DNA from: Escherichia coli
GTDB taxonomy: Bacteria; Pseudomonadota; Gammaproteobacteria; Enterobacterales; Enterobacteriaceae
Length of the DNA: 64,000 bases
Assembly (NCBI RefSeq): GCF_965641715.1
Contig: NZ_OZ282453.1
Strand: one strand, 5' to 3'
The position numbers and the translations under genes were made by a program. Shown here piece by piece: positions 1 through 11,860 of this stretch. Under the pieces are notes generated by a model that saw only the letters and a list, made by a program, of their open reading frames with translations, was not told the origin of the DNA and ran no database searches. Numbering within the stretch: position 1 is the first letter of the stretch; every line of letters begins with the position of its first letter.

Positions 1-1137
1 GAAGAAGCGGCTGTAGGGATTAAAAAATCCATCGAAGCCGGAACCTCTAAACTGAACGGTTTACCGGTAGTTAACCACGGCGTCGCAGCTTGCCGTCGCC
101 TCACCGAAACCCTGCAAAAACCGCTACAGATCCGCCACGGCACGCCAGATGCGCGTCTGCTGGCTGAAATCTCAATGGCCAGCGGCTTTACCAGTTATGA
201 AGGCGGTGGCATTTCCTACAACATTCCGTATGCCAAACGCGTAACGCTGGAAAAATCGATCCGCGACTGGCAGTACTGCGACCGTTTAATGGGGATGTAT
301 GAAGAACACGGGATCCGCATCAACCGCGAACCGTTTGGCCCACTAACGGGTACGCTGATCCCGCCGTTTATCTCGCACTCTATCGCGATAATCGAAGGCT
401 TGCTGGCGCTGGAACAGGGTGTGAAATCTATCACCGTTGGTTATGGCCAGGTCGGCAGCCTGACGCAGGATGTTGCGGCGATCCAGTCTCTGCGTGAACT
501 TGCACACGAATATTTTCAGAGCTATGGCTATACCGACTATGAATTGAGTACCGTGTTTCACCAGTGGATGGGCGGCTTTCCGGAAGACGAATCGAAAGCG
601 TTCGCTATTATCTCCTGGGGCGCAGCCGTCGCGGGGATGTCTGGTGCCACCAAAGTCATCACCAAAAGTCCGCACGAAGCCTGGGGCATCCCGACTGCCG
701 CTGCCAACATTCAGGGGCTGAAAGCCTCCCGCCAGATGCTCAACATGGTCAATGAGCAGAAATTCCCGCCGTGCCCTGCGGTTGAACTGGAAATTGAACT
801 GATTAAGAGCGAGGTTCGCGCAGTACTGAATAAAGTGTTCGAACTGGGTAATGGTGATATTGCGCGCGGAACGGTGCTGGCATTTGAAGCGGGCGTACTG
901 GATGTGCCGTTTGCGCCAGCCGCCTGCAACGCGGGCAAAATTCTTCCGGTCCGTGACAACACCGGCGCGATACGCGTACTGGAAGCCGGAGCCGTTCCAT
1001 TGCCAAAAGATATTCTCGACCTCCACCACGATTACGTTGCGGAACGCGCACGCTTTGAAGGACGCCAACCGACATTCCAGATGGTTGTAGATGACATCAA
1101 TGCTGTATCCCACAGTAAATTAATAGGAAGACCATAA
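1..1137 (+). CDS. glmE: glutamate mutase epsilon (E) subunit, 5'-truncated by the window edge
   Basis: Frame 1 is open from nt 1 to the stop at 1135-1137; the translation reads as GlmE/MutE-like (from memory) and is followed directly by methylaspartase, as in mut-mal clusters. Confidence 0.8.
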   Translation, partial: EEAAVGIKKSIEAGTSKLNGLPVVNHGVAACRRLTETLQKPLQIRHGTPDARLLAEISMASGFTSYEGGGISYNIPYAKRVTLEKSIRDWQYCDRLMGMYEEHGIRINREPFGPLTGTLIPPFISHSIAIIEGLLALEQGVKSITVGYGQVGSLTQDVAAIQSLRELAHEYFQSYGYTDYELSTVFHQWMGGFPEDESKAFAIISWGAAVAGMSGATKVITKSPHEAWGIPTAAANIQGLKASRQMLNMVNEQKFPPCPAVELEIELIKSEVRAVLNKVFELGNGDIARGTVLAFEAGVLDVPFAPAACNAGKILPVRDNTGAIRVLEAGAVPLPKDILDLHHDYVAERARFEGRQPTFQMVVDDINAVSHSKLIGRP

Positions 1138-2378
1138 TGAAAATAAAACAGGCTCTGTTCACCGCTGGCTACTCCTCATTCTATTTCGATGACCAGCAGG
1201 CGATAAAAAACGGAGCGGGTCATGACGGCTTTTTTTATACCGGGGAGCCGGTAACACAGGGGTTTAACGCCGTTCGTCAGGCCGGGGAGTGCGTATCGGT
1301 ACAGTTGATTCTGGAAAACGGCGCGGTCGCCGTAGGTGACTGTACTGCCGTACAGTATTCCGGGGCAGGCGGTCGCGATCCACTGTTCCTCGCAGAGCAC
1401 TTTATTCCGTTCCTCAACGACCATATCAAGCCATTACTGGTAGGCCGCGATGTGGATGCTTTCCTGCCGAATGCCCGTTTCTTCGACAAACTGCGTATTG
1501 ACGGCAACTTGCTGCATACCGCCGTGCGCTACGGATTATCACAGGCGCTGCTTGATGCTACCGCGCTGGCAACCGGCCGTCTGAAAACTGAAGTGGTCTG
1601 TGATGAATGGCAGTTGCCACGCGTGGCGGAATCCATTCCATTATTTGGTCAGAGCGGCGACGATCGATATATCGCCGTCGATAAGATGATCCTTAAGGGC
1701 ATCGACGTGCTGCCCCATGCGCTGATTAATAACGTCGAAGAGAAGCTGGGCTTTAAAGGTGAAAAACTGCGCGAATATGTCCGCTGGTTGTCGGATCGCA
1801 TTCTAAGCAAGCGCACCAGCGCACGCTACCACCCTACCCTGCACATCGATGTATACGGCACTATCGGTCTGATCTTCGATATGGATCCGCTTCGCTGTGC
1901 GCAATACATCGCCAGCCTGGAAAAAGAAGCGCAAGGCCTGCCGCTCTACATCGAAGGGCCGGTCGATGCCGGTAACAAGCCCGATCAAATTCGCCTGCTG
2001 ACCGCGATTACCAAAGAGCTGACGCGCCTCGGTTCCGGCGTGAAAATTGTGGCCGATGAATGGTGTAACACCTACCAGGATATTGTTGATTTCACTGATG
2101 CTGCCAGTTGTCACATGGTGCAAATCAAAACCCCGGATCTGGGCAGTATTCACAACATCGTCGATGCGGTTCTTTACTGCAACAGCCACAGCATGGAAGC
2201 GTACCAGGGCGGCACCTGCAATGAAACTGATGTCAGTGCCCGCACCTGTGTCCACGTCGCCCTTGCCGCTCGCCCTATGCGTATGCTGGTAAAACCAGGG
2301 ATGGGCTTTGACGAAGGCCTCGATATTGTCTTCAACGAAATGAATCGTACTATCGCGCTGTTGCAGGCTAAGGATTAA
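1137..2378 (+). CDS. 3-methylaspartate ammonia-lyase (methylaspartase, enolase superfamily)
   Basis: 413 aa ORF; start ATG overlaps the glmE stop (TAATG); length and N-terminus match methylaspartase as recalled. Confidence 0.85.
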   Translation: MKIKQALFTAGYSSFYFDDQQAIKNGAGHDGFFYTGEPVTQGFNAVRQAGECVSVQLILENGAVAVGDCTAVQYSGAGGRDPLFLAEHFIPFLNDHIKPLLVGRDVDAFLPNARFFDKLRIDGNLLHTAVRYGLSQALLDATALATGRLKTEVVCDEWQLPRVAESIPLFGQSGDDRYIAVDKMILKGIDVLPHALINNVEEKLGFKGEKLREYVRWLSDRILSKRTSARYHPTLHIDVYGTIGLIFDMDPLRCAQYIASLEKEAQGLPLYIEGPVDAGNKPDQIRLLTAITKELTRLGSGVKIVADEWCNTYQDIVDFTDAASCHMVQIKTPDLGSIHNIVDAVLYCNSHSMEAYQGGTCNETDVSARTCVHVALAARPMRMLVKPGMGFDEGLDIVFNEMNRTIALLQAKD

Positions 2379-2381
2379 CAA

Positions 2382-3752
2382 ATGGCTCGTTCTTTTAAAG
2401 TCTTATCGCCAACGGCAATCCTCGGGTATGGATTCCCGGAAGAGAGCTTCCGCAAAGCGATGGCAGAATCGCCCGATCTGATCGCCGTTGATGCAGGCTC
2501 TTCCGATCCAGGCCCCCACTACCTCGGGGCAGGCAAACCGTTTACCGATCGCGCAGGGGTCAAGCGCGATCTGCGCTATATGATCACCGCAGGCGTGCAA
2601 AATAATATACCGGTGGTGATCGGAACGGCCGGCGGTTCTGGTGCCGCACCACACCTGGAGTGGTGCCGAGAAATAATTCATGAGATTGCCCAGGAAGAGC
2701 ACCTCTCGTTCTCGATGGCGTTGATCCCGGCAGACGTTGACAAAGCCATCGTCCACCAGGCGCTGGATAACGGCAAAATCACGGCGCTGGAGTTTGTCCC
2801 GCCGTTAACCCACGACGCGATTGACGAAAGTACGTATATCGTCGCGCAAATGGGCATCGAACCCTTCCAGCGGGCGCTGAAAGAAGGCGCGCAAGTGGTG
2901 CTGGGCGGGCGCGCTTACGACCCGGCCTGCTTTGCTGCGCTCCCGATCATGCAAGGCTTTGATGAAGGTCTGGCGCTGCATTGTGGGAAAATCCTTGAGT
3001 GCGCAGCAATCGCCGCAACGCCCGGCTCAGGCTCTGACTGTGCGATGGGCATCATTGATGACAACGGCTTTACGCTGAAGACATTTAATCCGAAGCGTAA
3101 ATTTACCGAAACGTCAGCAGCTGCACACACACTGTATGAGAAATCCGATCCCTACTTCCTGCCAGGACCTGGCGGCGTGTTGAACCTGAAAGGCTGCACA
3201 TTTAAAGCAGTCAATGACGGCGAAGTCTACGTCAGCGGTTCTAAGCATGAAGAAACGCCGTATGCCCTGAAACTGGAAGGTGCACGACGGGTGGGCTTCC
3301 GCTGTCTGACCATCGCCGGAACGCGCGACCCGATTATGATCGCCGGGATCGATAAAATCATCGATGAAGTCAAAACCAGCGTTTCGCGTAACCTGTCGCT
3401 CGACGATGACAGCATTCGCATCAATTTCCACCTGTACGGCAAAAACGGGGTGATGGGAGACCATGAACCGATGCAAACTGCCGGGCATGAGCTGGGGATT
3501 GTCCTTGATGTAGTTGCACCGACCCAGGAAATTGCCAACAGCGTTTGCTCGCTGGTGCGCTCTACCATGCTGCACTACGGCTATGAAAACCGCATCGCTA
3601 CCGCAGGTAATCTGGCGTTCCCGTTCTCCCCTTCTGATATCCAGGGCGGGCCGGTATACGAATTTTCCATATATCACCTGATTGAAGCCAACGACGCTCT
3701 GCGTTTTGATTTCCATATTGAACAGGTGACGCCAGAAGGAGTTCAGGCATGA
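2382..3752 (+). CDS. DUF1446 (AtuA-like) family protein, function unknown
   Basis: 456 aa ORF 3 nt after methylaspartase; family assignment from memory of AtuA-like proteins and needs an HMM check. Confidence 0.65.
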   Translation: MARSFKVLSPTAILGYGFPEESFRKAMAESPDLIAVDAGSSDPGPHYLGAGKPFTDRAGVKRDLRYMITAGVQNNIPVVIGTAGGSGAAPHLEWCREIIHEIAQEEHLSFSMALIPADVDKAIVHQALDNGKITALEFVPPLTHDAIDESTYIVAQMGIEPFQRALKEGAQVVLGGRAYDPACFAALPIMQGFDEGLALHCGKILECAAIAATPGSGSDCAMGIIDDNGFTLKTFNPKRKFTETSAAAHTLYEKSDPYFLPGPGGVLNLKGCTFKAVNDGEVYVSGSKHEETPYALKLEGARRVGFRCLTIAGTRDPIMIAGIDKIIDEVKTSVSRNLSLDDDSIRINFHLYGKNGVMGDHEPMQTAGHELGIVLDVVAPTQEIANSVCSLVRSTMLHYGYENRIATAGNLAFPFSPSDIQGGPVYEFSIYHLIEANDALRFDFHIEQVTPEGVQA

Positions 3753-4066
3753 AACAGTCAATTGTCTCACTGGCGCAAGTCATTCGTTCGAAAAATGCCG
3801 GACCTTACGAACTGGTTTTAGATATTTTATTTAAAACGAAAGAAAACTATGAGCGAGTTAAATCATCAGGGCAATTAACCCCAGAACTGATTGCGCGCTT
3901 ATATCATGTTGAACCAGACTTTATTCATCGTATTGTCTGGTTTGATCCTTCTAACGCAGTAAAAATCGTCATGCCACGAGATATTATCTCCGGGAATGTA
4001 GGTGACAATGATGTCTATGGTGCACAGCAACATGCACCTTTATTAAATATGAGTTTCGATTTGTAA
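3749..4066 (+). CDS. small DUF4387-like protein, usual partner of DUF1446
   Basis: 105 aa ORF whose start overlaps the upstream stop by 4 nt (ATGA), implying translational coupling. Confidence 0.55.
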   Translation: MKQSIVSLAQVIRSKNAGPYELVLDILFKTKENYERVKSSGQLTPELIARLYHVEPDFIHRIVWFDPSNAVKIVMPRDIISGNVGDNDVYGAQQHAPLLNMSFDL

Positions 4067-4149: not shown

Positions 4150-4181
4150 GTAGATGCCTGAATCTCTATTCAGGCATCTAC
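4150..4181 (+). terminator. perfect 14-bp stem hairpin (gtagatgcctgaat-ctct-attcaggcatctac), attenuator or operator candidate
   Basis: Inverted repeat read directly in the sequence between the DUF4387 gene and the transporter gene; downstream tract is only moderately T-rich. Confidence 0.45.
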
Positions 4182-4205: not shown

Positions 4206-5507
4206 GTGCACCTGATGGAGGAAAAAATGAAGAAAATAAGTTTAACCACGATGATTCTTTTGGCGCTGGTACTTGGAATGATTATCGGCGTAGTGCTTAA
4301 TAACACTGTTTCACCGGAAACAGCAAAACTCTATGCGCAAGAAATATCGATATTCACGACGATTTTCTTACGACTGATAAAAATGATTATCGCTCCGTTA
4401 GTGGTCTCTACCCTGGTGGTAGGTATTGCTAAAATGGGCGATGCCAAAGCCCTTGGTCGTATTTTTTCTAAAACACTCTTTTTATTTATTTGCGCCTCAT
4501 TGCTGTCAATTGCCTTAGGCTTGATAACGGTAAATTTCTTCATGCCAGGCACAGGAATTAATTTTGTTGCACACGGTGCCGAAACCACAGGAGTGGTCGC
4601 GTCAGAACCCTTTACGCTAAAAGTATTTATTTCGCATGCTTTCCCCACCAGCATTGTCGATGCCATGGCGCACAATGAAATTTTGCAAATCGTGGTGTTC
4701 TCAATTTTCCTCGGCTGTAGCCTGACGGCGATTGGAGAGAAAGGCAGCGCCATCGTTCACGCCTTAGATTCGCTGGCACATGCCATGTTAAAGCTCACTG
4801 GCTACGTCATGCTCTTCGCTCCCCTGACCGTATTCGCTGCTATTTCAGCATTGATTGCTGAACGAGGACTGGCAGTTATGGTGAGCGCCGGGATCTTTAT
4901 GGGTGAATTTTATTTCACCATGTTATTACTTTGGGTGCTGCTTATCGGTCTGGCCATCGTTTATGTCGGCCCCTGCATCAGACGCCTGACCCGCGCCCTT
5001 TCGGAACCCGCCCTGCTGGCATTTACCACATCCAGTTCTGAAGCGGCTTTTCCGGGAACGCTTGAAAAACTGGAGCAATTTGGCGTTTCCCCCAAAATTG
5101 CCAGCTTTGTCTTACCCATTGGCTACTCATTTAATCTCGTTGGATCAATGGCCTACTGCTCCTTCGCCACAGTTTTCATCGCCCAGGCCTGCAATATCCA
5201 TTTATCCATCGGTGAGCAAATCACCATGCTGTTGATCCTGATGTTGACCTCGAAAGGAATGGCTGGCGTACCACGCGCCTCAATGGTGGTTATCGCCGCC
5301 ACGCTCAACCAGTTCAATATTCCGGAAGCGGGGCTGATCTTGCTGATGGGCGTTGATCCGTTCCTTGATATGGGGCGTTCCGCGACAAACGTCATGAGCA
5401 ACGCAATGGGCGCTGCGATGGTGAGTCGGTGGGAAGGCGAACATTTCGGCGAGGGCTGTCGGGGTAAAGCATTAAAACCCAATGAATCGAACGTTGCTCT
5501 GCCCTGA
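4206..5507 (+). CDS. dicarboxylate/amino acid:cation symporter (DAACS, GltP/DctA-like)
   Basis: 433 aa polytopic membrane protein with DAACS-like motifs (…FIAQ…, …GVPRAS…); start may be the internal ATG at 4227 (MKKISLT…). Confidence 0.8.
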   Translation: MHLMEEKMKKISLTTMILLALVLGMIIGVVLNNTVSPETAKLYAQEISIFTTIFLRLIKMIIAPLVVSTLVVGIAKMGDAKALGRIFSKTLFLFICASLLSIALGLITVNFFMPGTGINFVAHGAETTGVVASEPFTLKVFISHAFPTSIVDAMAHNEILQIVVFSIFLGCSLTAIGEKGSAIVHALDSLAHAMLKLTGYVMLFAPLTVFAAISALIAERGLAVMVSAGIFMGEFYFTMLLLWVLLIGLAIVYVGPCIRRLTRALSEPALLAFTTSSSEAAFPGTLEKLEQFGVSPKIASFVLPIGYSFNLVGSMAYCSFATVFIAQACNIHLSIGEQITMLLILMLTSKGMAGVPRASMVVIAATLNQFNIPEAGLILLMGVDPFLDMGRSATNVMSNAMGAAMVSRWEGEHFGEGCRGKALKPNESNVALP

Positions 5508-5614: not shown

Positions 5615-7267
5615 ATGTCCAAACCATTTATCTGGCAAGAACCGTTTCTACAAAATAAAGACGGTACAGAATATACATTAATTAGCGATCAACATATTAC
5701 AGTAACGGAATTAGACGGCGAAGAAGTGATAAAAATCGCTCCTGAAGCATTAACGCTGCTTGCCCGGCAGGCATTTTATGAAGCCTCTTTTTTCTTACGT
5801 TCCGCTCATTTGCAACAGGTCGCCAGCATTCTTAACGATCCGCAGGCCAGCAGTAATGATAAATACGTTGCGTTGCAGTTATTACGTAATGCTGAAGTCT
5901 CAGCAAAAGGGGTATTACCCAACTGTCAGGATACCGGCACCGCAACTATTATTGCCAGTAAAGGGCAACAGATATGGACCGGAGGTAACGACGCCGAAGC
6001 CTTAAGCAAAGGCATTTACACCACTTTTCAGGAAAATAATCTGCGCTTTTCACAAAATGCGCCGCTGGATATGTATACCGAAGTCAATACGCAAACCAAT
6101 CTCCCGGCGCAGATTGATATCTGCGCCGTCGCTGGTGATGAGTACCATTTCCTCTGTGTTAATAAAGGAGGCGGCTCTGCCAATAAAGCCGCGCTTTATC
6201 AGGAAACCAAATCCTTATTGCAACCAGAAAAACTGACCGCATTTTTAATCGAAAAAATGAAATCGCTGGGCACCGCTGCCTGCCCGCCTTACCACATCGC
6301 CTTTGTCGTCGGAGGGCTTTCAGCCGATCAAACCTTAAAAATTGCCAAGCTGGCCTCAACGAAATATTACGACAATTTGCCCACCAGCGGAAACGAGCAG
6401 GGACAAGCATTCCGTGATATTGAGCTGGAAAAAGCGTTGCTCGAGGCCAGTCAGCAATTTGGTATTGGTGCACAATTTGGGGGGAAATATTTCGCTCATG
6501 ATATTCGCGTCATTCGTCTGCCGCGTCACGGTGGCTCTTGCCCGATAGCTATGGCGCTCTCCTGTTCTGCCGATCGCAATATCAAAGCAAAAATTAACAA
6601 ACACGGTATCTGGCTGGAAAAACTCGAACACAATCCGGGGCAATATATTCCAGCCTCACTGCGGGAAGAAAATCACGCGCAACATGTACAACTGGATCTA
6701 AACCGTCCGTTGCGTGACGTGATGCTGGATCTCGCCAGATTACCGGTAGGCACCCGCGTGTCGTTAAGTGGTCCCATCGTAGTGGCGCGCGATATCGCCC
6801 ACGCCAAAATAAAAGCGCGGCTGGATAGCGGTGAATCGATGCCGGAGTACCTGAAGCATCATATTGTCTATTACGCTGGCCCGGCGAAAACACCGGAGAA
6901 CATGGCCTGCGGTTCACTGGGTCCAACTACGGGCGGTCGAATGGACGGTTATGTCGATACCTTCCAGGCGGCCGGCGGCAGTCTGGTGATGTTATCGAAA
7001 GGGAACCGCAGCCAGCAGGTCACCGATGCTTGTCACAAACATGGCGGCTTCAATCTGGGAAGTATTGGCGGTGCAGCTGCGTTACTGGCGCAAGAATATG
7101 TCAAAAGTCTGCGTTGCCTGGAATACCCGGAGCTGGGTATGGAAGCGGTGTGGATGATGGAAGTGGAAAATCTGCCCGCATTCATCCTGGTAGATGATAA
7201 AGGCAATAATTTCTTTAGTCTGTTTGAGCAGCAACACCGCTGCGCCAGTTGCCCTGCGGGACATTAA
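5615..7267 (+). CDS. fumD: class I (Fe-S) fumarate hydratase paralog, probable mesaconase/fumarase
   Basis: 550 aa, collinear with and highly similar to E. coli FumA as recalled; context with glutamate mutase and methylaspartase suggests mesaconate hydration. The symbol fumD is from memory of the O157:H7 literature. Confidence 0.8.
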
Positions 7268-7882: not shown

Positions 7883-7914
7883 CTGCGCCTGGCATCCCGC
7901 CAGGCGCAGGTTTT
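7883..7914. terminator. bidirectional intrinsic terminator between convergent genes
   Basis: 11-bp perfect stem (ctgcgcctggc / gccaggcgcag) followed by TTTT, sitting between the adenosyltransferase stop and the LysR stop. Confidence 0.55.
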
Positions 7915-8818
7915 ACATCTCCTGCGGTACGACCGATTTCGCCAGCAACCATTCACGAAATTGCTGCAAGTGCGGTGAGTCAGATTTCTCTTCCTGCCAC
8001 GTCATAATAAAACGATTACCGGTACGAATAGGCACATCACAGGGAATCACCATATCGCCACTATCCAAATCATGTTGAATAGCGAACCGTGGTAACAGCG
8101 CCACGCCGAGATTAGAGCGCACGGCGGCAATCAGCATTGAAAGCAAATCGAAACGTGGTCCGTTGTTGACCAGCGGACTACTAACGCCAGATAAAGCAAA
8201 CCACTCTTCCCAGCCAGTAATACGGGTGCTTTGATGCAGAAGTGGTAACTCAGTAAGCAGTTCTGCCACTGACAGTTTTTGATCGGACATTGCAAGCAAA
8301 CTGCCGCTGCATACCGGCAAAATCTCCTCATCAAAGAGATATTCTACTTCCGCCCAGGGTGCGCAAAAATTTTCGCGCATAATGACAGCATCGTACTCCC
8401 GATTAAGAAAATCGCCGTTATTAGCTAAAGAATGAATATTAACAATAATATCGGGATGTAACTTTGTGAATTCATGTAAATTTGGGATTAACCAGTGGGT
8501 ACTAAAAGTAGGATTAACGGCAAGTTCAATAACCTGAACCGTAGGCTGCCAGGTCATAATGGTATTGGTATCGCGTTCCAGCTTATTTAATGTTTCTTTT
8601 ACTATCCCCAGGTAATACTTCCCTTTATCATTAAGAAAAATGCGTTTTTTAGAGTGTGAAAATAACGGAGTACGTAAAAATTCCTCCAGCGCACTTACTT
8701 GTCTGAATACTGCACTTTGGGTTAACGCTAACTCCTCTGCCGCTCTGGTATAACTTTCATGACGTGCGACGACCTCAAAAGTCACCAGCAGTTCCGTTTT
8801 AGGTATTTTCCCTCGCAT
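7913..8818 (-). CDS. LysR-family transcriptional regulator
   Basis: 301 aa; N-terminal HTH (…FEVVARHESYTRAAEELALTQSAVFRQV…) typical of LysR-type regulators. Confidence 0.85.
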   Translation of the reverse strand: MRGKIPKTELLVTFEVVARHESYTRAAEELALTQSAVFRQVSALEEFLRTPLFSHSKKRIFLNDKGKYYLGIVKETLNKLERDTNTIMTWQPTVQVIELAVNPTFSTHWLIPNLHEFTKLHPDIIVNIHSLANNGDFLNREYDAVIMRENFCAPWAEVEYLFDEEILPVCSGSLLAMSDQKLSVAELLTELPLLHQSTRITGWEEWFALSGVSSPLVNNGPRFDLLSMLIAAVRSNLGVALLPRFAIQHDLDSGDMVIPCDVPIRTGNRFIMTWQEEKSDSPHLQQFREWLLAKSVVPQEM

Positions 8819-9484: not shown

Positions 9485-10354
9485 TTATTTCAGAACAGTT
9501 TTCAGTGCTTCACCGATATCCGCCAGGCTGCGAACGGTTTTCACGCCTGCGGCTTCCAGAGCAGCGAATTTCTCATCCGCAGTCCCTTTCCCACCGGCAA
9601 TGATGGCACCCGCGTGGCCCATACGTTTGCCTTTCGGCGCAGTCACACCAGCGATGTAACCCACAACTGGCTTGGTAACGTGCTCTTTGATGTACGCAGC
9701 TGCTTCTTCTTCAGCGCTACCGCCGATCTCACCGATCATCACGATCGCTTCGGTCTGCGGATCTTTTTCGAACATTTCAAGAATGTCGATAAAGTTAGAG
9801 CCAGGGATCGGGTCACCGCCGATACCGACACAGGTCGACTGACCGAAACCGTAATCCGTGGTCTGTTTAACCGCTTCATAGGTCAGTGTACCGGAACGGG
9901 AAACGATACCCACTTTACCCGGTTTGTGAATGTGACCCGGCTGAATACCGATTTTGCATTCACCCGGAGTGATAACGCCTGGGCAGTTCGGGCCGATCAT
10001 ACGAACGCCTGCTTCATCCAGCTTCACTTTCACAGTCAGCATATCCAGCGTCGGGATGCCTTCAGTGATGGTGATAATCAGTTTGATGCCTGCGTCGATG
10101 GCTTCCAGAATGGAGTCTTTGCAGAACGGTGCTGGTACGTAGATAACAGAAGCGGTAGCGCCAGTAGCAGCAACAGCTTCACGCACGGTGTTGAACACCG
10201 GCAGGCCGAGGTGGGTAGTACCGCCTTTACCTGGAGTTACGCCACCAACCATTTTGGTGCCGTATGCAATGGCCTGTTCAGAGTGGAAAGTCCCCTGGCT
10301 ACCGGTAAAGCCCTGGCAGATAACCTTGGTGTTTTTATCAATTAAAATGGACAT
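9485..10354 (-). CDS. sucD: succinyl-CoA synthetase alpha subunit
   Basis: 289 aa, [24 protein letters not shown]…. Confidence 0.97.
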
Positions 10355-11520
10355 TATTTCCCCTCCACTGCGGCAACAACCTGCTGAGCTGCATCCGTCA
10401 GACCTTTTGCTGCAATAATATTCAGGCCGCTGTCAGCCAGTTTCTTCGCGCCGAGTTCGGCGTTGTTACCTTCCAGACGTACCACGACCGGTACGTTAAC
10501 ACCCACTTCCGCTACCGCGCCGATGATACCGTCAGCGATCAGGTCGCAACGAACGATACCGCCGAAGATGTTAACCAGAACGGCTTTCACTTTGTCGTCA
10601 GAGAGAATGATTTTGAACGCTTCGGTTACACGTTCTTTGGTTGCGCCGCCGCCAACGTCAAGGAAGTTAGCTGGTTCGCCGCCGTGCAGTTTAACGATGT
10701 CCATCGTACCCATCGCCAGACCTGCGCCGTTAACCATACAACCGATGTTACCGTCCAGCGCAACGTAGTTCAGTTCCCACTGTGCAGCCTGTGCTTCACG
10801 CGGATCTTCCTGCGACTGGTCACGCATTTCGCGCAGATCAGGCTGGCGGAACAGGGCGTTGCCATCAGCGCCCAGTTTGCCGTCGAGGCAAATCAGATCA
10901 CCCTGTTTGGTGATGACCAGCGGGTTGATTTCGATCAGCGCCAGATCGCGTTCCAGGAAAATGGTCGCCAGGCCCATGAAGATTTTGGTGAACTGCTGAA
11001 CCAGTTTACCTTCCAGACCCAGTTTGAACGCCAGCTCGCGTCCCTGATACGGCATCGGGCCAGTCAGTGGATCAAGCGCAACTTTGTGGATCAGATGCGG
11101 AGTTTCTTCCGCCACTTTTTCGATTTCCACGCCGCCTTCGGTGGAGGCCATAAAGACCACGCGACGGGAACTACGGTCTACAACGGCACCGAGGTACAGC
11201 TCTTTAGCGATATCGGTCGCTGCTTCAACCAGAATCTGGTTAACCGGTTGGCCATTAGCATCTGTTTGATACGTTACCAGACGCTTGCCGAGCCAGTTTT
11301 CTGCAAAAGCACGGATGTCTTCTTTGCTGTTTACAACTTTCACACCGCCCGCTTTACCGCGGCCACCAGCGTGAACCTGACATTTCACTACCCACGGACC
11401 GGCACCGATTTTTGAAGCGGCTTCTTCTGCTTCGCGCGGAGTAGTACAGGCATAACCCACCGGTGCTGGTAAGCCATAGCGGGCAAACAGTTGTTTTGCC
11501 TGATATTCATGTAAGTTCAT
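10354..11520 (-). CDS. sucC: succinyl-CoA synthetase beta subunit
   Basis: 388 aa, [18 protein letters not shown]…; overlaps the sucD start by 1 nt. Confidence 0.97.
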
Positions 11521-11559
11521 GTGTTCTGTCCATCCTTCAGTAATCGTTATCTTTTAAAC

Positions 11560-11860
11560 CGTAGACCGAATATTTCGTATCGCTCCCGGGTATTGTCGGT
11601 CACCCGTAGGCCTGATAAGACGTGTAAGCGTCGCATCTGGCATCGCTTGTCGGATGCGGCGCGAGCGCCTTATCCGACCTACATCGGTGCTTCCCGTAGG
11701 CCTGATAAGACGTGTAAGCGTCGCATCAGACATCGCTTGTCGGATGCGGCGCGAGCGCCTTATCCGACCTACATTGGTGGTCCCGTAGGCCTGATAAGAC
11801 GCGTCAGCGTCGCATCAGGCTTCAATTGCCGGAGAAGGCGATAATGCCTTATCCGGTCTA
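11560..11860. repeat. BIME/REP array, three ~95-bp units
   Basis: Three near-identical units containing gcctgataagacg…gcgtcgcatc…cggatgcggcg…ccttatccgacctac palindromes in the sucB-sucC intergenic region. Confidence 0.85.

Follow-up and report, generated by a model that had tools for sequence, protein, structure and literature searches.

A 64,000-nucleotide stretch of the Escherichia coli contig NZ_OZ282453.1 (RefSeq assembly GCF_965641715.1; the window) carries, at positions 2382 to 4066, two overlapping genes that very probably encode CmlA and CmlB, the subunits of a citramalate lyase cleaving (S)-citramalate to pyruvate and acetate independently of coenzyme A (CoA) and without an acyl-carrier prosthetic group. 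This function is already known, having been assigned by others who also solved the structure, and the window genes are orthologues of the crystallised pair (92% and 85% identity, same island). An earlier note on this DNA had stated that no function is established for the pair and had offered it as a candidate for a missing citramalate-processing step. The first statement is superseded, as near-identical proteins have been deposited as CmlA and CmlB with citramalate (PDB 9erq and 9evf) and the cmlAB genes of Raoultella planticola are in use, while the guess agrees with the match to citramalate-bound CmlAB and with the gap recorded in the literature (PMC4682846). The features concerned are:

2382..3752, + strand: cmlA, predicted citramalate lyase large subunit, 456 residues, Pfam AtuA/DUF1446 (open reading frame list, ATG start)
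3749..4066, + strand: cmlB, predicted citramalate lyase small subunit, 105 residues, Pfam DUF4387 (open reading frame list, ATG start)
3735..3752, + strand: coupling junction, with the Shine-Dalgarno sequence GAAGGAG at 3735-3741 and the stop/start ATGA at 3749-3752 (read from the sequence)
2370..2384, + strand: junction between the mal stop and the cmlA start, with AAGGA at 2370-2374, TAA at 2376-2378 and ATG at 2382-2384 (read from the sequence)

A sequence search of the PDB with both window proteins returned chains A and B of entries 9erq and 9evf, end to end and ungapped, with 421 of 456 residues identical for CmlA (92.3%, E 1.3e-292) and 88 of 104 for CmlB (84.6%, E 5.2e-57); the window pair differs from the crystallised pair by 35 substitutions in subunit A and 16 in subunit B. 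Entry 9erq, released on 2025-10-22, bears the title 'Citramalate lyase - AMPPNP - citramalate complex', and in both entries chain A is labelled 'Acyclic terpene utilization AtuA family protein' and 'Citramalate lyase, subunit A (cmlA)', and chain B 'DUF4387 domain-containing protein' and 'Citramalate lyase, subunit B (cmlB)'. Chain A of the two entries and window CmlA share one 90%-identity cluster, and the exact chain A sequence is recorded in genomes of Klebsiella michiganensis. Our narrower homologue alignment (A2) has 144 columns that are invariant or nearly so, and none of the 35 large-subunit substitutions falls in them; fold comparison gives the large subunit the same fold as crystallised CmlA. 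The invariant glycine-rich loops are also present in window CmlA, which together with the AMPPNP in 9erq suggests that this protein may bind an adenine nucleotide. At 92% identity within the same island a transfer of function can be accepted, and the E. coli proteins would be expected to have the same activity as the crystallised and R. planticola enzymes.

Both open reading frames are real genes rather than chance occurrences, as evidenced by 6595 homologues at E values of 1e-5 or below and by a pairing that is kept in all 77 testable loci from other species. The coordinates, lengths and 4-nt overlap given in the earlier note are exact when compared with the open reading frame list and the sequence, and its family assignments recur in a Pfam hidden Markov model search, in which the 456-residue protein matches AtuA (PF07287) partially, over residues 63-393 (E 6.1e-19), and the 105-residue protein matches DUF4387 (PF14330) over residues 6-101 (E 2.9e-39). 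The cmlB start codon (3749-3751) overlaps the cmlA stop codon TGA (3750-3752), the Shine-Dalgarno sequence of cmlB lies within the 3' end of cmlA, and a gap of 3 nt separates the mal stop from the cmlA start. Given the 4-nt overlap, translational coupling would probably lead to production of the A and B subunits in matched amounts. No NCBIfam model (June 2026) matches either protein, and neither was matched in a PADLOC search; a reading as a defence system was dropped on the latter ground. A reading of the 456-residue protein as a second methylaspartase, its common database name, was likewise dropped, as Pfam gives AtuA only and no MAAL_N/MAAL_C enolase-superfamily domains, and the true methylaspartate ammonia-lyase (Mal) is encoded by the upstream gene.

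CmlAB would close the pathway encoded by the island. In the proposed sequence of reactions, glutamate would be converted to (2S,3S)-3-methylaspartate by GlmSE with GlmL and CobO, (2S,3S)-3-methylaspartate to mesaconate by Mal, mesaconate to (S)-citramalate by FumD, and (S)-citramalate to pyruvate and acetate by CmlAB, the last presumably by a retro-aldol-type cleavage between C2 and C3 that releases the acetate arm. Kronen & Berg 2015 (PMC4682846) described the island, characterised FumD as a mesaconase/fumarase and called the fate of (S)-citramalate 'still unclear'. They detected no citramalate lyase activity in E. coli grown on citrate (with high citrate lyase), acetate or propionate, the conditions for citrate lyase, isocitrate lyase and methylisocitrate lyase all being without it. 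The DUF1446 gene downstream of mal was reported there as having unknown function and as often mis-annotated as methylaspartase; it follows mal in enterobacteria and Dictyoglomus, and clostridial clusters have citDEF-type genes instead.

Functional evidence comes from a preprint (bioRxiv 10.64898/2026.01.16.699985) in which R. planticola cmlAB, with one ribosome-binding site per subunit, serves as a functional citramalate lyase. Growth of an evolved E. coli acetyl-CoA auxotroph on mesaconate depends on the cmlAB plasmid and is abolished when the plasmid is cured, and label from mesaconate was traced into leucine, so that the flow of carbon from mesaconate to acetyl-CoA is isotope-verified. Up-regulation of the acetyl-CoA synthetase Acs fits a release of free acetate. 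The net reaction and its independence of CoA and of an acyl carrier are proposed because of this preprint and the absence of cit genes.

Scanning a single genome per species with alignment A2 yielded 80 loci with a CmlA homologue at 54-92% identity, spanning Enterobacterales, Betaproteobacteria, Riflebacteria, Aminicenantes/Acidobacteriota, Spirochaetes, Planctomycetes, Bacillota and others, which were probed by tblastn with the island proteins and E. coli CitCDEFXG. CmlB lies directly downstream of CmlA in each of the 77 loci whose sequence extends far enough. Of 74 loci, 63 contain Mal, directly upstream of cmlA in 58, and GlmE is found in 38 of the 45 loci having at least 5 kb on each side; the co-occurrence with methylaspartase and mutase on which the earlier note had staked its reading is thus strong. 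The commonest junction between the two genes is a 4-nt overlap (32 of 78 loci, with a start-codon choice that favoured short distances). All 17 long family members examined (at least 560 residues) have DUF4387 fused C-terminally after the AtuA-like domain, which by the Rosetta-stone argument is consistent with a physical complex of A and B. CitD and CitF were found by tblastn in none of the 80 cmlAB loci, and the E. coli CitC, CitD, CitF, CitG and CitX queries gave nothing within 10 kb of cmlAB in any of them. Two weak CitE-like matches (24-30% identity) both fall in loci that lack Mal, and a CitE/RipC-like lyase gene lies near the pair in a Mal-less metagenome-assembled genome (MAG) of the Magnetococcales (L086). 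The classical lyase never accompanies the cmlAB pair in the surveyed loci. A search for Mal homologues aimed at clostridial clusters returned only relatives at least 71% identical, and the absence of cmlAB beside citDEF in those clusters is taken from PMC4682846.

The classical enzyme, CitDEF with CitC, CitX and CitG (Clostridium tetanomorphum; citCDEFXG in E. coli), carries out the same conversion of (S)-citramalate to pyruvate and acetate at the same end position of the methylaspartate pathway. It has no sequence relationship to CmlAB, and the citrate lyase of E. coli shows no citramalate lyase activity (PMC4682846). CitDEF relies on an acetyl-thioester cycle, on an acyl-carrier subunit bearing a phosphoribosyl-dephospho-CoA prosthetic group and on three maturation genes, none of which was found within 10 kb of cmlAB in any of the 80 loci. 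Isocitrate lyase and methylisocitrate lyase, members of the phosphoenolpyruvate mutase superfamily, cleave free hydroxy acids via a carbanion next to a carboxylate and without a thioester, and a CoA-independent cleavage therefore has chemical precedent.

The linkage of the pair to glmS-glmL-glmE-mal is tight enough that an accessory or maturation factor of glutamate mutase or methylaspartase, rather than a pathway enzyme, might be considered, and the large protein is named 'methylaspartate ammonia-lyase' in many database records. Such a role, also entertained in the earlier note, is nevertheless very improbable: GlmL and CobO are already encoded in the cluster, the large protein has no Pfam MAAL domain, and nine loci contain the pair with neither mutase nor Mal nearby. 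Moreover, the crystal ligand citramalate is a pathway intermediate two steps downstream of the mutase, not a partner protein, and R. planticola cmlAB functions in E. coli on mesaconate-derived citramalate with mutase and methylaspartase absent. An in-frame fusion of DUF4387 with GlmS would also fit an accessory role; it occurs in one Wohlfahrtiimonas MAG (L081), and it may reflect a lost stop codon or an assembly error. The fused open reading frame (L081:11365-12117, 250 residues) joins DUF4387/CmlB (residues 1 to about 103) to GlmS (residues 116-249; TIGR01501, E 4e-61), and the mutase genes in that locus lie downstream of cmlA.

By Pfam, the large protein belongs to the AtuA family, and the namesake of PF07287, AtuA of acyclic terpene utilisation in Pseudomonas and Thauera, has a homologous large domain together with a DUF4387 domain. 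A tentative assignment makes AtuA a lyase that releases acetate from a tertiary beta-hydroxy acid (PMC4847356). In AtuA-type proteins the two domains are fused into one chain of about 600 residues (615 in Thauera), whereas CmlAB is split into 456 and 105 residues, and the long fused members are 34-47% identical to CmlA. AtuA is encoded beside geranyl-CoA carboxylase genes and, if the tentative assignment holds, uses a CoA ester, whereas CmlAB would use a free acid and is encoded beside mutase, methylaspartase and mesaconase. AtuA proper is a fused chain encoded with atu genes; the window genes are split, and their neighbours are glm, mal, fumD and cobO, with no carboxylase or CoA-ester enzymes. 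The family membership, and a 57%-identical homologue that adjoins acyl-CoA carboxylase genes (locus L060), could be read as signs that the pair performs an AtuA-type reaction (3-hydroxy-3-alkylglutaryl-CoA:acetate lyase) or uses another branched hydroxy acid, its position in the island being incidental. We give this very little credence, as the match to PF07287 is weak and covers only residues 63-393 (E 6e-19), against 92% identity to a citramalate-bound crystal protein, the island is without atu/liu genes, acyl-CoA carboxylase or CoA ligase, and Mal adjoins the pair in 58 of 74 species.

That a nucleotide site exists in CmlAB follows from the AMPPNP in the 9erq crystal. Since its users treat the Cml reaction as reversible and acetate-inhibited (bioRxiv 10.64898/2026.01.16.699985), this nucleotide is more likely to be a non-consumed cofactor or effector than a sign of stoichiometric hydrolysis of adenosine triphosphate (ATP). 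It is improbable, in our estimation, that CmlAB phosphorylates the C4 carboxylate of citramalate with ATP as co-substrate and cleaves the resulting acyl phosphate to pyruvate and acetyl phosphate, the latter then losing its phosphate on the enzyme or going on to acetate kinase. We likewise regard as speculative, and on balance doubtful, a scheme in which the bound nucleotide takes part in the catalytic cycle through an acyl-phosphate or acyl-adenylate intermediate, ATP or phosphate replacing the thioester of CitDEF, in a new class of C-C lyase across the AtuA/DUF4387 family that would also depend on a further protein, here called protein X, outside Enterobacterales.

Protein X is about 313-318 residues long, contains a Walker A motif (GVIGAEGAGKST) and has no recorded Pfam family (L004:11677-12618, L006:11712-12665, L002:11698-12654); it is encoded after cmlB or elsewhere within the cluster. 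Outside Enterobacterales, 38 of 39 Mal-linked loci and one of nine Mal-less loci contain it, as against none of 13 enterobacterial loci, and tblastn against the window returned nothing below E 0.6. Its homologues carry the database names 'alanine-tRNA synthetase second additional domain-containing protein', 'TsaE' and 'GTPase SAR1 family'. Protein X, which is uncharacterised, seems to be near-obligate in the glutamate cluster of non-enteric bacteria.

Several points weigh against the identification of the window pair as a citramalate lyase, or against its extension to distant relatives. The name 'citramalate lyase' is founded on the title given by the PDB depositors and on a preprint in which the enzyme serves as a tool, the latter being all that a literature search for primary citramalate lyase biochemistry yielded, and it is by descent from orthologues that E. 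coli CmlAB itself would have the activity. In the preprint there was no growth at first, laboratory evolution was required, and RS-citramalate never gave growth (bioRxiv 10.64898/2026.01.16.699985). Extracts of E. coli O157:H7 were without citramalate lyase activity, and no condition was ever found in which the island is expressed (PMC4682846). Pfam, NCBIfam (June 2026) and RefSeq carry no citramalate lyase function for the pair. Of the 74 loci, whose CmlA homologues are all at least 54% identical, 11 are without Mal; in Mal-less Shewanella (L061, L065) and Accumulibacter (L021) unrelated genes surround the pair, and in a Haliea MAG (L060), which has neither Mal nor mutase, the CmlA-like gene (9944-11344) belongs to a pair that is divergent from the following genes:

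L060:5184-9766, - strand: acyl-CoA carboxylase carboxyltransferase and biotin carboxylase/biotin carboxyl carrier protein genes, an Atu-like context (locus comparison)

The family is not mono-functional at about 55% identity, and function should not be transferred automatically at that distance.

With CmlAB, the methylaspartate pathway would be closed in E. coli and other Enterobacterales, its last step having been an acknowledged gap in 2015. It is also the first anchored function for a family of about 2,400 cluster representatives, and the tentative assignment of AtuA therefore becomes more credible. A two-gene, CoA-independent citramalate lyase is moreover useful in pathway engineering, as in the 2026 preprint. 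Annotation lags behind, with RefSeq, Pfam, NCBIfam and UniRef labelling thousands of members 'AtuA family', 'DUF4387', 'methylaspartate ammonia-lyase' or 'acyl-CoA synthetase'. The large subunit is recorded as 'AtuA family', 'DUF1446' or 'putative 3-methylaspartate ammonia-lyase, glutamate mutase', and the small subunit goes under 'DUF4387' or, in one UniRef cluster (21 entries, Enterobacteriaceae), under 'Acyl-CoA synthetase'; 'citramalate lyase' occurs in none of the database record names for the window sequences.

The genes surrounding the pair in the window are as follows:

1..1137, + strand: glmE (glutamate/methylaspartate mutase subunit E), 3' portion only, truncated by the edge of the window (RefSeq, from locus L001 at 99.5% identity; open reading frame 175..1137)
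1137..2378, + strand: mal, methylaspartate ammonia-lyase (NCBIfam equivalog TIGR01502 at 542.7 bits, cut-off 286; RefSeq annotation)
4227..5507, + strand: dicarboxylate/amino acid:cation symporter, GltP/DctA-like (RefSeq, start at window position 4227; below NCBIfam equivalog cut-offs)
5615..7267, + strand: fumD, class I fumarase/mesaconase forming (S)-citramalate (NCBIfam NF011921 equivalog, 1272.6 bits; FumD mesaconate kinetics in PMC4682846)
7277..7879, + strand: cobO, cob(I)yrinic acid a,c-diamide adenosyltransferase, which supplies the B12 coenzyme of the mutase (RefSeq, NCBIfam)
7913..8818, - strand: LysR-type regulator, divergent, conserved alongside the island in Enterobacterales (RefSeq, NCBIfam, locus comparison)
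4150-4163 / 4168-4181, + strand: perfect inverted repeat (14-bp arms, 4-nt loop) ahead of the transporter gene, in the spacer after cmlB (GTAGATGCCTGAAT / ATTCAGGCATCTAC)

In a 99.5%-identical E. coli chromosome RefSeq annotates, in order, cydAB, two hypothetical genes, glmS, glmL, glmE, mal, 'AtuA family protein', 'DUF4387 domain-containing protein', the symporter, class I fumarate hydratase, cobO, LysR and sucDCBA, with glmS through cobO on a single strand and the LysR gene divergent. The placement of the pair in the glutamate (methylaspartate) cluster, between methylaspartase and a transporter, as proposed in the earlier note, is thereby confirmed by RefSeq and NCBIfam. The glm-mal-cmlAB-fumD-cobO-LysR island, with the two hypothetical genes upstream of glmS, lies between sucD and cydA, and the corresponding site of strain K-12 has mngR-mngAB in its place. 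The first 9 kb of the window recur, at 95-99.5% identity, in 1134 of 5426 complete E. coli genomes (1135 records), and the island is thus carried by about one fifth of these genomes; one of the matches sits on a plasmid.

The proposal that pair and transporter belong to the same operon stands as far as their shared strand and direction are concerned, and is qualified by a hairpin before the transporter gene, at which the transcript may be attenuated or processed past cmlAB. The 160-nt spacer between cmlB and the transporter gene folds better than its shuffles (fold energy z-score -3.3), no clear run of T follows the inverted repeat at 4150-4181, and no sigma-70-like site was found in the spacer. 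The repeat may act as an attenuator, stabilise the RNA as a hairpin or be a palindrome to which a protein binds. Further along the window, between sucC and sucB/odhB, the open reading frame list contains an artefact at 11521-11844 in which the peptide RRPDKTCKRRI.HRLSDAARAPYPTYIG occurs twice as an internal repeat, which points to tandem copies of a repeated intergenic element, probably a repetitive extragenic palindromic (REP) or bacterial interspersed mosaic element (BIME)-type sequence.

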